A DNA stretch of 64,000 bases from a virus (lineage: Duplodnaviria; Heunggongvirae; Uroviricota; Caudoviricetes). The DNA lies in the IMG/VR virus record IMGVR_UViG_2537562189_000009. The stretch is one strand, 5' to 3'. Positions 34,801 to 40,800 of the stretch are shown piece after piece (the first letter of the stretch is position 1; each line of letters opens with the position of its first letter). A program made the position numbers.

Positions 34801-37800
34801 GCCTGACAGAGATTATCCAGTGCCGATAGTCGAGACTGAGAGCTTTCTTAACCTCGAACCCGCGCCTGCGGTAAGAATGAATCAGCCATTCGGCCTGTTC
34901 TGCAGTGCATGGAGGGTGCTGGAACCATTCAGACTTGAATGCGTGAGAATACCGCCCGTGCGTGCAGGCAAGAACGGGCGAATTATCAGAATTGTAATAT
35001 TTTGCGTTGCGTGCCATCGGTTTTCTCCGGTGGCACGGTGTTACTCAGCGGGAGTTCAGCCCCGCGCAAGATTGTAGATGAGTTTATTCTCCTGAAAAAG
35101 CAGAAAAGCCAGCTTTTATTCCGATCTCTTTCAATGCCTGTAATGAAGTGACAAACTCACCTTCGCGCAAGATAAATCCGTCCGTGACCCGAGCATCCAC
35201 AAAATTAATTAACGCAGCCCCATTCTTTCGCAAACACATAATGCGGTAATGACTAACAAGATTTCCATTTTCAACGCACACAGCATAGAGGCCATCTTCA
35301 CAAAAAATTTTACGCAGTTCTTCGATGTTCATCATCAGAATCCTTCCGGATAATTAGCTCTCCCCTTTAAGGGACCATCCCTCTTATCCCTGCGCGCTAC
35401 TTAAGTATTTTTGATTCTATTCCGGCACCGTCCAGAACTTCAAACGCGTTAGAAAACTAAAAACAAAAACCCGCCGAAGCGGGTTAAGTGCGAGTGCGTT
35501 GAGGATGCCTGCCACATCAGAGGTGGCGAGGGATTTCTCCCTCGCCGGGTCTCTTACTCCTCAGGTTCGTAAGCTGTGAAGACAGCGACCTCCGTCTGGC
35601 CGGTTCGGATTCGTACCTCGCAGAGGTCTTTCCTCGTTACCAGTGCCGTCACTATGACGGTTAAACAGATGACGATCAGGGCGATTAACATCGCCTTTTG
35701 CTGCTTCATAGCCTGCTTCTCCTTGCCTTTCGGCACGTAAGAGGCTAACCTACATGTGTCTAGCATACAAACTCACCTTCGCGCAAGATAAATCCGTCTG
35801 TCACTCGACCATCCACAAAATTAATTAACGCAGCCCCATTCTTTCGCAAACACATAATGCGGTAATGACTAACAAGATTTCCATTTTCAACGCACACAGC
35901 ATAGAGGCCATCTTCACAAAAATTTTTACGCAGTTCTTCGATGTTCATCATCAGAATCCTTCCGGATAATTAGCTCTCCCCTTTAAGGGACCATCCCTCT
36001 TATCCCTGCGCGCTACTTAAGTATTTTTGATTCTATTCCGGCACCGTCCAGAACTTCAAACGCGTTGAAAATAAAAACAAAAACCCGCCGAAGCGGGTTA
36101 AGTGCGGGTGCGTTGAGGATGCCTGCCACATCAGAGGTGGCGAGGGATTTCTCCCTCGCCGGGTCTCTTACTCCTCAGGTTCGTAAGCTGTGAAGACAGC
36201 GACCTCCGTCTGGCCGGTTCGGATTCGTACCTCGCAGAGGTCTTTCCTCGTTACCAGTGCCGTCACTATGACGGTTAAACAGATGACGATCAGGGCGATT
36301 AACATCGCCTTTTGCTGCTTCATAGCCTGCTTCTCCTTGCCTTTCGGCACGTAAGAGGCTAACCTACATGTGTCTAGCATGAAATTGGCCTCAGATTAAT
36401 GTTAAGCGTCTTGCAGGACGCGTAATGTTAACTGGGGCTTTTCTCTATCTGCCGTTGGTATTCATGCCCGAGGCAGATAGCCTCAAGCACCCGCAGGCAT
36501 TCTACTTAACTCCCGTTATCTCGCCAATATGAAATCAGTCAGAAAGGCGATCCATAAGAATAACAGAACAATAAATTACCCGCACCACCGCAATAGTCAG
36601 CGAACATTTAAGAACCAACATGACAGCCTCCCACATTTAAAGTACGTATGTTCTAATAAATATAAATGGCATGATTCTGCGAAATACTTACATAAGCAAT
36701 TCGCTCAAATCTGACTGTCAGTTTTGAGCGAGAAAAATGATATCTACATATCTATCAAATTACAAATCTTAAAGCCTAAAAAACTTATCGTCCTCCCCAA
36801 GCTCAAGCACAACACTATTATTTATGAAGTCTTGATCAATATTCTCCAACTTGTCTTTAAGAATAGCCAATATATATTGACCATTAATCCCCGAAGCTAT
36901 CTCGAATAACTTATTTATTTGATTTACATGAATTGCCTCAATTCCATCATGAGCTATAAAACGTGGTGTTCTGGCTTCTAAAGACTCCTGGACAGATAAA
37001 TAGGCAAAATCTAAAGAGGCAACCTGGGCTTTCTTTTTTCCTTCTCCCTGATTACCTGATGTGAGCAAAGTTCCTAAAGGTTCAATGGTAAAAACGAAAG
37101 AACCGGAGGAATCTTTATAGGAAAGAATATATTCATCCTGATATAATTTTTTAGTATATAAAGAAAAATAGGAATTGAATAGCGCAAGACGTTTGTTAAA
37201 ATCGTCAAGTTTAGATTTTAATCTATCTGACACATCATTAAACTTTGCTTTCAGTATATTAAAGTTGTTCTCCATCTCTTGGATTTGAAGTAGTCCAGCT
37301 TCAAGCCCACCTTTTTCTTCAAATAATGAATTTAATTTTTTTTGCATTATTTGCAGGTCTGCCAATGTCCCATGCGAAGACAAACTCTTTAAAAGCTCTG
37401 ATTCTTGAGTCAATAAGTTATTTAGTTCATCTTTATATTTGGAAATTTCTTGCAGCACTGGCTGCATTTGTTTTCTAATAAACTCAGCTTTTTTTACAAG
37501 CATTTTATTATGAAACGAAAGTAGCTCAGTAAACTCTTTGTTTAAGTTACCTAACCGATCAGTTGCTTCTAAGTACAACTTCTGTAGATCTAGTGTATTT
37601 ATATTTTCATGACTTTTTTCCAGATCTAGTATAGCCTTATCGTTTAATTTTTGCTTAAACTCCAAAGATGATAGTATGATAGAAACTTCACTAATTTTAA
37701 TTTTTAACTCATTTAACTCAGCAAGCATATCATTATAAGAGTCTGCCACTTGAAAATTAGAAATTAACTCTTCTTGTGCTATAATATCTCTATTTATAAT

Positions 37801-40800
37801 TGCAATAGCTTGTTCCAAAGCATTCTTTGAGCGATGGCGAGTAATTACTTCATAATCGGATTTCGCCAGTTTATAGGCTTTAGTCACTGACTGTTTTTCA
37901 TCCAGAATCTGTGAGTTACCGAACCCAAACATAAACAGATTTAACGTTTCATATTGTGTATTAGAACCCATTTTTATCGTTTTTAATGCGTTCGACATCT
38001 TGTCATGCGTATTTCGAATAACACGTCCCATAATCTCTCGTATGGTCGGTTTTATCGCGGAATCAAGATATAATGTTCTTTTTAAAGCCTCGTTGAAATC
38101 TTTAGCCTTCGTATAGGACTCTTCATTTATTGAGGCTATAACCTTCGTTTTATTAGTCTCAGATGTAATTTTACGCTTAATTTTTATTACTGGTGCAGTT
38201 TTATTATTCAAATCTTTTGTGAGAATTAAACAAAACTCAATCTCGTTCTCTATCAAATAATTTTTTATAACCGAATTTTCTTTCTTGAATTCAGGATCGG
38301 TATAAAAATTCAGTTGTTCTGCTCCAAAACAAAAATCTAAAGCTCTTAATACAGTAGTTTTTCCCACACCATTTCCAGTTTGCTCTTTGCTGGAGGTGTT
38401 TCGGTCAATAATCAAATTAACGCCAATGTGAAATTCGATATCACGAATCACTCCAAGCCTGAAAGAACTGACTATTAGCCGTTTCAAAAACATAATATCA
38501 AATCTCCATTTTCGTTAGCATCAACCAGGCCTAATAAATATAGCCAATTTAAAGTGTAAATATATTGCGTGAATGAAGAGTTGTTATTTTTAGATTTGAA
38601 TTCATTATACAAGTCTATAATATCAACATACGAATAAGCATTTGAACTCATGCATTCTAATAACCGAGCCCCCAGGTAATACAAGGTTTGGCTTGGTTTT
38701 GTTACATCAGAGATAATCATATTGGTTTTTCCAGAATCTTACACTCTACGAATGCATGATAAACGATAAAAGAAGCATGGCATTCGATTTCTTCGCTTGT
38801 GTAATTCATTGCCATAAGAGAATTTAAGCATTTCTTAATGATGTGCTCTATTACACTGTCTATTATCCAATCTGCAAACTCTCTTACCAATTGAATCTTT
38901 AAATTATTCCGTTCCTGAGCATCCTTGCAGCTCTTATACGCTTCTCTATGTTTAAGTAATAAATCTCCTTGACAATCAAGATATCGTGAATTGATGCTTT
39001 TCAGTGCCGTTTCCTTAGCAGTAGGCATACTTTCATTTAATGTTTCATACGCTTTATCTATCATCGAAGAATATAGATAGAACCCTTCAATACGTTCTCT
39101 ATGTTTTATAACATCATTGAAGTCTATTTTATTCTCAATATCATATGGCTCGTAGTCATTGTTTGTACGAGGATCAATAACATTCGAATCAACTAAAATA
39201 CCAACAAGATCCATAAAAATCGATGGAGACTTTATAATATCAACAGAGTTAGAATCGACAACCACCTGCACATTACGTGAGTAATTCCCTGACCTTTGAG
39301 TAACACCAACCATGATCAGCCTCGCTTGTTTTCATTATTTCCAAAAACGACCGTCTGATTATTTTTTGAATGGCTACCGCTTTTTTGAATTATTGTATGC
39401 CCTGAACTTTTTTTATTAACAATAAATGTACCTAAAAATGTTACAAGAAAGCTACCAGAAGTGAACATCAATGGCACACTATTGAAGTGATATGCAGCAA
39501 AGCCAGCGCAAGCAACGAATGTCAAAGAAAATATTCTAATCATAATTCGGATCATAGCCACATCCTGTAAGTACTGTTGTCATCTTTTAGTGATTCTTGA
39601 ATCCCATACTATACAAAAGCTTATCCATCTTTTGTACAAGCTTCCGCTTTGAAAGTGACATTATAAAGTAACTACAACTTAGAGTGCATCCCCCTAAATA
39701 TCTCCGATGGTGATAGTTGCTGGCTACAACTTACTTTCATAACCAACTAACTGGCTTGCTCTGCGTTAATTAGTGCATAGGAATGTCAGCATTATCCGCT
39801 CTTGGCACAAACCAAACGACCACGCTAGCGCTAATCTTGTGCCACGAAAATGTCAATTCACATCTGAACTAATGCTCTTTAATCTCGTCGCTTCAATAGA
39901 TATCGAGCATTTCCCTGATAGAATGCGAGTATGCGCTGCATAACTTCAGTCTTCCGGCACTCGCGACAGATTATGTTTAGGCGACTGTCGTAGCGGCGTA
40001 TTTCTCCGTCAGGTAATGACCAGATAAGGTCCGGATCAACCACAGCAGGTTTCTTCACCTTTGCCCTCGAGAGTTTTTTGCGGGCGTTTTGCCAGTCCTT
40101 ACGCGCCTGTTCAGACGGGAATAACCCGTAGCCGGAGTTGTATACATCGCCACTGGCTACCAGCTCTCTGGCAAGAACGCTCATCAGATATCTAGTCGCA
40201 CCTGTTTTAGCTTCCAGTTGCCGTAACGTCTCACGACCGCTCTGGCGCACGAGTTCCACCACCTGCCCTTTAATTTTTTCCCGCTCTTCTTGTGTAAAAA
40301 CTTTTGCCACAAGTCCCCCTTAAAATTACCTCATGACCTGAAATCAACACTTATCCTCTGAAACCAGGCGGAATTTCTGTATCCGGTTCAGAAATATGAT
40401 TAACACAACGCTGTACAGGTGAACGTCCCAGGCGGATGACCAGTTCGTCCCATTTTTCGCGGAGCTTTGACGGGCTCATGATGTTTTTTACCCAGAATGG
40501 ATCTCGCTGAACCCGACCAAACATTTCGCAAATTTGTCTGTGGCTTCTGCCATCCAGCATCCGCATTGTGCGCACGTCATTGGCCCAGGCAGTCCAGTTA
40601 GGCTCTTTTGGTCGCATGATCTCGCCATCATCACTGGCTGCCTGTTCGTAGAGACCCACGATCCGCCCCCAGATCCACTGCGCACACGCCAAATCCTCCC
40701 TGCTACCCCACTGGCGTTTTTTCGCACTAAACACAACCGCGTCGGAGTTCCGGGTTAAAAAATCCTGTTCAGTCGTCTGCGGGTTCGGTTGCGAAGCTTC

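Follow-up and report, generated by a model that had tools for sequence, protein, structure and literature searches.

The DNA analysed here is a stretch of 64,000 nucleotides from a tailed phage of the Caudoviricetes (IMG/VR virus record IMGVR_UViG_2537562189_000009; "the window" below means this whole stretch), which carries on its minus strand a four-gene operon belonging to the Lamassu/ABC-3C family, namely a prophage-borne short type II Lamassu (Table 1). From first to last gene, the operon encodes a small membrane protein, a protein ending in a CTD10 domain, a middle component (MC6) and an SMC-like ABC ATPase. All four reading frames proposed in an initial annotation of the sequence were recovered by an open reading frame (ORF) check, the first of them as 39316-39561, and the translational coupling that it described is equally clear: the membrane-protein and CTD10 genes meet as TGA TC ATG, with a gap of 2 nucleotides, the CTD10 and MC6 genes share an ATGA overlap, the MC6 and ATPase genes overlap by 10 nucleotides (ATGTTTTTGA), and a Shine-Dalgarno-like sequence lies 5' of every start. 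The block is also AT-rich, as had been noted, with a GC content of 0.332 over 36769-39561 against 0.509 and 0.471 in the two flanks and 0.487 in the whole window. A Qin-like lambdoid prophage, located at ynfA/rspAB, is the host element, and the RefSeq annotation of an identical copy agrees with the placement of the cassette between replication genes (O-like, and DUF977/"Ren-like") and hok (hokD), a slot that in related phages holds other cargo such as methyltransferases.

Table 1. Features of the operon and its borders, in window coordinates.
Feature	Position	Strand	Basis
LmuB-like SMC-type ABC ATPase, 574 aa, DUF2326/YydD family	36769..38493	-	Pfam, PADLOC, AlphaFold2/Foldseek, motifs in 73 relatives
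LmuC-like middle component, 78 aa, ABC-3C MC6	38484..38720	-	Pfam MC6, junctions, same-position ORF in relatives
LmuA-like adaptor without effector domain, 198 aa; CTD10 helical bundle at about 26-195 after a short N-terminal peptide	38717..39313	-	
N-terminal pairing motif of the CTD10 protein, residues 4-23, VTQRSGNYSRNVQVVVDSNS	39245..39304	-	Alignment with the membrane-protein tail
Two-helix membrane protein, 79 aa from ATG (81 aa if GTG at 39561), proposed effector	39316..39555	-	Hydropathy, positive-inside rule, conservation
C-terminal pairing motif of the membrane protein, IIQKSGSHSKNNQTVVFGNN	39334..39393	-	Motif alignments, permutation test
Upstream non-coding, presumed regulatory region with an 8-bp inverted repeat and TTGTAC/TATAGT hexamers	39562..39878	-	
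Hairpin, 15-nt arms, 93% complementary, about 40 nt 3' of the ATPase stop, without a T-run	36701..36731	.	

The ATPase matches Pfam DUF2326 in its C-terminal part above the gathering threshold (4e-14), PADLOC PDC-M68B strongly (2.8e-41) and the PADLOC LmuB profile weakly (6e-4). The Walker A motif and the C-terminal signature-like and Walker B-like motifs recognised in the initial annotation are all present and contain positions that are invariant across 73 relatives: G40, N41, G44, K45, T46 and T47 in the Walker A GNGVGKTT, N481, G485 and K487 in the signature-like SGNQGEGKKK (GNxGxGKK), and, in the deviant Walker B FIAHDG, F512 and D516 of an FxxHD block that is followed by the equally invariant E519 and H522. 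The last of these motifs reads FIAHD-G in the clade of the window and FILHD-Q in sister loci that carry an HNH nuclease. In an AlphaFold2 model (predicted local distance difference test, 85) the ABC head is interrupted by a helical coiled coil of about 258 residues (roughly 194-451), which bears out the SMC-type architecture that had been read from the sequence; the coiled coil has no CxxC zinc hook. When this model was compared with the PDB by Foldseek, the top match was Bacillus subtilis YydD (2.6e-23), itself a named DUF2326 protein, followed by LmuB from five Lamassu electron cryo-microscopy entries (9uxh, 9hqx, 9hqu, 9nyg and 9ux7, 8e-15 to 5e-12; individual chains 9uxh_F, 9hqx_f/B, 9hqu_A/B, 9nyg_B and 9ux7_A, 8e-15 to 1e-10), and LmuB outranked condensin, cohesin, Rad50, Smc5/6, MukB and JetC. 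A sequence search of the PDB with the ATPase profile returned coiled-coil noise only. The ATPase is not a housekeeping SMC, RecN or SbcC protein, the identity against which the initial annotation had asked for a check, because no NCBIfam equivalog matches it at E up to 1; RecF is rejected on the same ground, and the patchy, mobile-cargo distribution given below points the same way.

The 78-residue protein is Pfam ABC-3C Middle Component 6 (MC6; residues 7-77, 1.6e-13, 50.8 bits against a cutoff of 27.2), a family that serves as an LmuC profile in DefenseFinder output, and nearly all relatives have an ORF of 75-87 residues at this position. RefSeq starts the gene later (14104-14271, 55 residues, in locus L001) than the window ORF at 38484-38720; the longer, 78-residue form is almost certainly correct, because the Pfam profile covers residues 7-77 and the ATG overlaps the upstream stop. 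The 198-residue protein matches Pfam ABC-3C C-terminal domain 10 (CTD10) over residues 36-195 (1.6e-10, 42.1 bits against a cutoff of 28.1), with only about 25-35 residues ahead of the domain. No effector domain was found on this N-terminus with Pfam, PADLOC, NCBIfam and PHROG profiles, in agreement with the earlier impression that no enzymatic effector is recognisable, and the protein lacks the toxic domain that ABC-3C systems fuse N-terminally to the CTD.

The best structural match of the CTD10 model is YydB (probability 0.89), in the cross-linking model of YydD with YydB. This entry (PDB 9a6c), which is matched by both window models, is an integrative model of the B. subtilis pair from cross-linking mass spectrometry, in cells according to its title, and is the only experimental evidence of a DUF2326 ATPase contacting a CTD-bearing partner. 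YydB differs from the window protein in its length (481 residues) and large N-terminal domain, and YydB-YydC-YydD has no membrane partner; yydBCD has apparently never been examined as a defence system.

The window operon thus has the coiled-coil ABC ATPase, the small middle component encoded between the effector-position and ATPase genes, and the CTD-ending component of ABC-3C systems, as well as the Walker A, the LmuB-like ATPase of about 600 residues (by fold) and the LmuC and LmuA-CTD partners of a short type II Lamassu. The likeness to Lamassu and ABC-3C suggested in the initial annotation is confirmed by the Pfam families and the LmuB structural matches, and a defence-type cassette around an SMC-like ABC ATPase is indeed what the locus holds. 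It is not an undescribed one, because curated ABC-3C families of Pfam take in three of the four genes at above-threshold scores and the same names are already in use in RefSeq, which also excludes a wholly new family; PADLOC lists the candidate PDC-M68B, and short Lamassu were classified in 2025. ABC-3C systems were reportedly described by Krishnan, Burroughs, Iyer and Aravind in 2020.

Type II Lamassu (LmuA-LmuC-LmuB; DdmABC) are equated with ABC-3C in the literature. Short Lamassu have been described with an LmuB of about 600 residues whose Walker A reads Gx4GK[ST] and whose Walker B is deviant (hhhhD[Q/S/T/E]), and the effectors specific to them include HNH, SMEK and lipase; one group, 'Clade O', is said to have lost its effector domain while being conserved in more than 100 sequences from more than 40 species (Haudiquet et al., bioRxiv 10.1101/2025.04.02.646746). 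In the DefenseFinder table of the same work, triads of LmuA_CTD10 (221-246 residues), LmuC and LmuB_Short (577 residues) are listed as "Lamassu_Hypothetical" with the effector unassigned, and the window operon is therefore very probably of this kind and may correspond to Clade O. It differs from that description in having a fourth gene, and the word 'membrane' is absent from the text. In PADLOC, PDC-M68 is an untested "phage defence candidate", and membership in it was rejected: component B is matched by the ATPase, as given above, and component A (HNH-CTD10) is absent from the 198-residue protein, whereas sister loci match it at 6e-34. Our literature search turned up no experimental work on the operon or on DUF2326/CTD10 systems in general, and nothing functional on PDC-M68, DUF2326 or YydD/YydB.

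The fourth gene encodes the small membrane protein. Its two membrane helices, already recognised in the initial annotation, correspond to hydrophobic segments at residues 1-22 and 27-46, but the protein most likely has 79 rather than 81 residues, starting at the ATG at 39555, which has AGGA 7 nucleotides upstream and agrees with RefSeq and all homologues, rather than at the GTG at 39561. Lys and Arg residues number two at the N-terminus, none in the loop and six in the tail, so that by the positive-inside rule both termini are predicted to be cytoplasmic, from where the tail could meet the CTD10 protein. All Enterobacterales relatives, at an operon identity of about 50%, have this gene ahead of that for the CTD10 protein. 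Hydropathy across loci predicts one or two transmembrane helices, and no Bell/HeLo-type family is among the Pfam matches of the protein. A sub-threshold match (E = 0.014) to Pfam Hol_Tox, a putative holin-like toxin family, was obtained for the window protein (39316-39555) and recurs in an unrelated lineage, in a Balneolaceae locus (L035, 3862-4152).

Relatives were retrieved with the CTD10 protein, with the ATPase and by a scan of one genome per species; the 80 loci kept were classed by the gene upstream of MC6. Sixty loci encode an HNH-CTD10 fusion of 264-326 residues (264-290 in 59 of them), which matches PADLOC PDC-M68A and whose HNH is homologous to CBASS nuclease effectors, and seven encode a SMEK_N-CTD10 fusion of 321-356 residues (Pfam, 4e-40). 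Truncated CTD10 genes (119-127 residues) were found in three loci of the HNH clade (L010, L040 and L050). About 15 loci have a short CTD10 protein (183-253 residues) without an N-terminal domain and, directly upstream, a small ORF of 58-96 residues that is strongly hydrophobic, with one or two segments, in all of them but a Myxococcus locus (L024). This class comprises the window, all Enterobacterales relatives, Bacteroidota, Balneolaceae, Alphaproteobacteria, Myxococcus and one high-GC lineage, which amounts to at least four deep lineages, and the start of its CTD10 gene lies at -20 to +5 nucleotides from the small ORF across lineages. In a quick neighbour-joining tree of the ATPase, which is indicative only, it occupies several deep branches, whereas the HNH and SMEK forms make one clade each. 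Because the long proteins carry HNH rather than transmembrane N-termini, the effector domain appears to have been replaced and not split, and a split HNH protein (79 plus 198 residues from a form of 268-275 residues) was accordingly rejected.

What ties the two upstream genes together is a shared peptide. In nearly every short-CTD10 locus a motif of 15-26 residues in the membrane protein repeats the N-terminus of the CTD10 protein of the same locus. In the window the tail IIQKSGSHSKNNQTVVFGNN aligns with the CTD10 N-terminus VTQRSGNYSRNVQVVVDSNS over 20 residues, nine of them identical, a score reached in 2 of 2,000 shuffles; the corresponding pairs are NTATQKGGAFSQNTQNNYFS and NSIQQHGGMGSTNIQNNYLT in L002, INKQKQKIGKEGTGYQTGSGGTININ and MTKQKQNIGKEGTGYQTGDNGVININ in L019, STGYQAENMTVNN and GTGYQADRMTVHN in L064, and QTHSGNGDNIS and QKHSGDGDNLS in L060 (tail first in each case). 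A tail and a CTD10 N-terminus could be aligned in all 11 loci of this class in which the tail was tested, although the alignment of L052 is no better than chance; shuffles reached the score 0-5 times in 2,000 for four loci and 26-88 times for two others. The cognate pair outscored every cross-lineage pairing in nine of the 11 loci (L004 ties and L052 fails), with a mean score of 48 for cognate pairs within a locus against 22 for pairs across lineages, and a permutation test over eight independent lineages gave 1 in 20,000. The resemblance is maintained as protein sequence and was not left behind by a recent duplication, because nucleotide identity within pairs is only 39-76% and, of the identical residues, only about half are encoded by the same codon; for the same reasons a recent tandem duplication of DNA or gene conversion is not supported as the source of the motif.

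Gly, Asn, Gln, Ser and Thr together make up 61% of motif residues as against 20% of the rest of the CTD10 protein, and AlphaFold2 places beta strands, at low confidence, at residues 3-6, 15-19 and 22-25 of the CTD10 protein. Pfam-A includes the RHIM, PP/Ses_B and HET-s families. No amyloid-motif family is among the Pfam matches listed at E up to 1, BASS profiles lying outside the libraries searched. In all loci but one the motif forms the C-terminal tail of the membrane protein; in L011 (563-3552), a high-GC relative that adjoins gyrB-dnaN-dnaA, it lies between the two hydrophobic segments, and the CTD10 protein of this locus is longer (253 residues), with its motif about 50 residues in.

The distribution of the cassette is that of mobile cargo. 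Relatives are encoded in 424 of 100,044 species sampled at one genome per species, and the cassette itself in 17 of 5,426 complete E. coli genomes, where the full-length query finds 15 of the 17 copies at an identity to the window of 99.5% or more and RefSeq annotates the same intact genes in all 17. In two E. coli copies (H3 and H4; NZ_CM144239.1 and NZ_OZ392455.1; strain KK05-19) an IS3-family element splits the match to window positions 36381-39878, and the split copy in strain KK05-19 is apparently inactivated. No copy was found in 50,697 deposited phage records. Relatives sit in a P4-like satellite hotspot between integrase and psu/delta (L003, 5220-11049), next to a P2-type gpA replication gene (L006, 1-5396), in a Pectobacterium island (L002), and beside an MmeI-type restriction-modification gene and Tn7-like tnsA/tniB genes (L008, 23-6695, and L009, 1-6698).

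At the borders of the operon, the inverted repeat that the initial annotation had placed upstream is real (8 bp; TACAAAAG at 39612-39619 and CTTTTGTA at 39629-39636), but the promoter that it was said to overlap is not a canonical sigma-70 promoter, because TTGTAC and TATAGT are spaced by 20 nucleotides and not by the 17 originally counted. A consensus scan found 19 promoter-like sites against 14.8 +/- 4.4 in shuffles, that is, no excess, and no canonical promoter was identified in 39562-39878. The hairpin 3' of the ATPase gene may mark the end of the operon. Directly downstream of the cassette lies a tandem duplication of hok/mok-sok and part of rem (35151-35753 and 35767-36367; period 614-616 bp, 98-99% identical) that yields two identical 70-residue Mok/Hok ORFs (35554-35766 and 36168-36380); hokD and rem are both single in a genome whose cassette is identical.

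Set beside short type II Lamassu such as Vibrio cholerae DdmABC and Salmonella LmuACB, the window operon has the same order of CTD protein, middle component and SMC-like ATPase of about 570 residues, the same tight coupling, a fold nearest to solved LmuB apart from YydD, a deviant Walker B (here with a Gly outside the published set) and a location in mobile elements and defence hotspots, and its ATPase resembles V. cholerae LmuB in lacking a zinc hook. It departs from them in its use of CTD10 and MC6 instead of CTD7 and MC3 and in the marginal LmuB-profile similarity given above, in an LmuA-like protein that lacks an effector domain, and in its fourth gene. Closer relatives are the Lamassu_HNH/PDC-M68 sisters, whose ATPases show 31-36% identity and whose operons are laid out alike, with partners from the same MC6 and CTD10 families; these differ in having an N-terminal HNH nuclease on CTD10, no upstream membrane gene and no pairing motif.

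The extra gene and its motif recall systems of another sort. Pairs of amyloid-signalling proteins in fungi and bacteria have been discovered by a short motif shared between the products of adjacent, collinear and nearly overlapping genes, and in Bab/Agp of E. coli, found in prophage hotspots, a BASS11 motif of about 20 residues passes activation from the sensor to a membrane abortive-infection effector. In the window the shared motif, with its 20 aligned residues, is longer than the 15 asked of such pairs, and the genes are adjacent and collinear with their 2-nucleotide gap. As in Bab/Agp, in Bell/NLR BASS pairs and in fungal HET-S/NWD2, a small membrane-targeting protein with a hydrophobic N-terminal part ends in a motif of about 20 residues, rich in Gly, Asn and Gln with predicted beta strands, a second copy of which stands at the N-terminus of the neighbouring gene product; the E. 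coli examples also share the prophage-hotspot setting. Where those pairs have an NLR or a TPR-GreAB-PIN protein (Agp) as partner, the window has the CTD10 adaptor of an SMC-like ATPase complex; its membrane protein is a classical transmembrane hairpin without detectable Bell/HeLo similarity (Bab being compared by description), and the motif falls outside the Pfam amyloid families.

Such a shared motif marks out amyloid-signalling gene pairs, Bab/Agp of E. coli among them, and we infer that the membrane protein is an abortive-infection effector coupled to the sensor by the motif. The conserved fourth gene and the lineage-matched motif strengthen what the initial annotation had offered as a guess. 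The reading that we consider probable, if far from settled, is that the operon is an anti-phage system of the Lamassu (ABC-3C) kind whose LmuA has exchanged its enzymatic effector domain for a small membrane protein encoded by a gene of its own. If the assembly is like that of solved Lamassu complexes, an SMC-like ATPase dimer with the MC6 protein would keep a single CTD10 protein inactive and monomeric. Binding of phage replication products, for example DNA ends, would free the CTD10 protein, which would then self-associate, and the clustered N-terminal motifs could recruit or convert the matching tails of the membrane protein. Clustering of the membrane helices would in turn permeabilise the inner membrane and abort the infection. 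In characterised Lamassu systems a sequestered monomeric LmuA is released and then oligomerises, and the systems are reported to terminate the infected host by this release of the effector; such an oligomerisation step, known for LmuA only, could serve to nucleate a templated fold. A bolder version, which we put forward tentatively and with more doubt than conviction, is that this 'effector-less' branch of Lamassu signals by prion-like amyloid templating, the CTD10 motif nucleating a cross-beta fold that converts the motif of the membrane protein and turns that protein into a pore. This might be the first link between an SMC-family DNA sensor and amyloid signalling; it would be present in four or more deep bacterial lineages and might have preceded the HNH and SMEK forms. 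Lamassu and amyloid signalling are linked in none of the Lamassu papers, the amyloid-signalling papers or a full-text search, which did not cover the founding ABC-3C paper, where transmembrane partners for CTD10 may be mentioned.

Several observations temper the proposed reading: some of the motif alignments are only moderately significant, the membrane protein belongs to no Pfam, PADLOC, NCBIfam or PHROG family, and the Gly after the Walker B aspartate in the clade of the window falls outside the Q/S/T/E set published for short LmuB. The membrane protein could instead be a stable anchor, whose tail would pair with the CTD10 N-terminus by beta-strand addition and tether the Lamassu complex to the membrane, for instance to survey incoming DNA, while the ATPase complex would protect by binding or blocking phage DNA without cell death. 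A shared motif speaks for similarity of peptides and not for a mode of interaction, no toxin family is matched, and Haudiquet et al. (bioRxiv 10.1101/2025.04.02.646746) regarded an effector-less clade as viable enough to persist across more than 40 species. We nevertheless regard an anchor as unlikely, given that the same position holds a killing domain, HNH or SMEK, in every sister clade, that characterised Lamassu are reported to act by releasing effectors and to end the life of the infected host, that a homotypic motif is typical of co-assembly into a repeating structure rather than of a lock-and-key heterodimer, and that small transmembrane proteins are common as abortive-infection effectors. 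A service to the phage itself, as an SMC-like prophage module for DNA handling, some other form of superinfection exclusion or holin-like control of lysis, would fit the location in a lambdoid early region and the weak Hol_Tox similarity; the cassette is absent from the deposited phage records and is therefore not a core phage function. Such a service is very unlikely: relatives of the cassette also occur outside phages (a chromosomal island, Tn7-like cargo, restriction-modification neighbours and the P4 satellite hotspot), its patchy occurrence in E. coli and across species is typical of defence cargo, and the homologous characterised systems are all defence systems.

The CTD10 protein without an effector domain, the truncated CTD10 genes of the HNH clade and the IS3 insertions might also suggest a decaying Lamassu remnant preceded by an unrelated prophage moron or a spurious ORF. 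This is scarcely plausible for four intact, translationally coupled ORFs that recur in the same arrangement in different mobile elements of Enterobacterales, at about 50% protein identity, and that have analogous pairs in Bacteroidota, Balneolaceae, Alphaproteobacteria, Myxococcus and a high-GC lineage; an unrelated ORF cannot give a lineage-matched motif, and the catalytic motifs of the ATPase are invariant. As to a single transmembrane-CTD10 gene, split by a frameshift or sequencing error or joined by programmed frameshifting, the summed length of the two products (79 plus 198 residues) comes close to that of the HNH-CTD10 fusions (268-275 residues), and the CTD10 frame is offset by -1 from that of the membrane gene in most lineages. 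The CTD10 frame is not open back into the transmembrane region, however, because an in-frame stop lies 0-11 codons 5' of its ATG in 10 of 11 lineages; junctions vary by lineage (ATGA, TAATG, 0, +2 and +5 nucleotides), the CTD10 gene of the window has a Shine-Dalgarno sequence ahead of its start, and the near-identical E. coli copies are annotated with the same intact genes throughout. A frameshifted single gene is rejected on account of the stops and the varied junctions, and we give hardly any credence to either version of the joint product.

Few anti-phage systems are as widespread as Lamassu, with reports from about 15% of genomes, and the way in which they sequester and release an enzyme effector is explained by recent structures. 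A conserved, apparently effector-less clade has been left open in the literature, and the previously unnoticed fourth gene, a small membrane protein, is a candidate answer. If its coupling to the CTD10 protein is amyloid-like, amyloid signalling, shown so far in bacteria only for Bab/Agp, would extend beyond NLR- and TPR-type sensors to SMC-type DNA sensors, and exchanging the motif, a minimal unit of about 20 residues, could serve to rewire sensors and effectors. Even with no more than ordinary strand pairing between the two, the membrane protein would represent a new class of Lamassu effector, and such operons should be called as four genes, not three.

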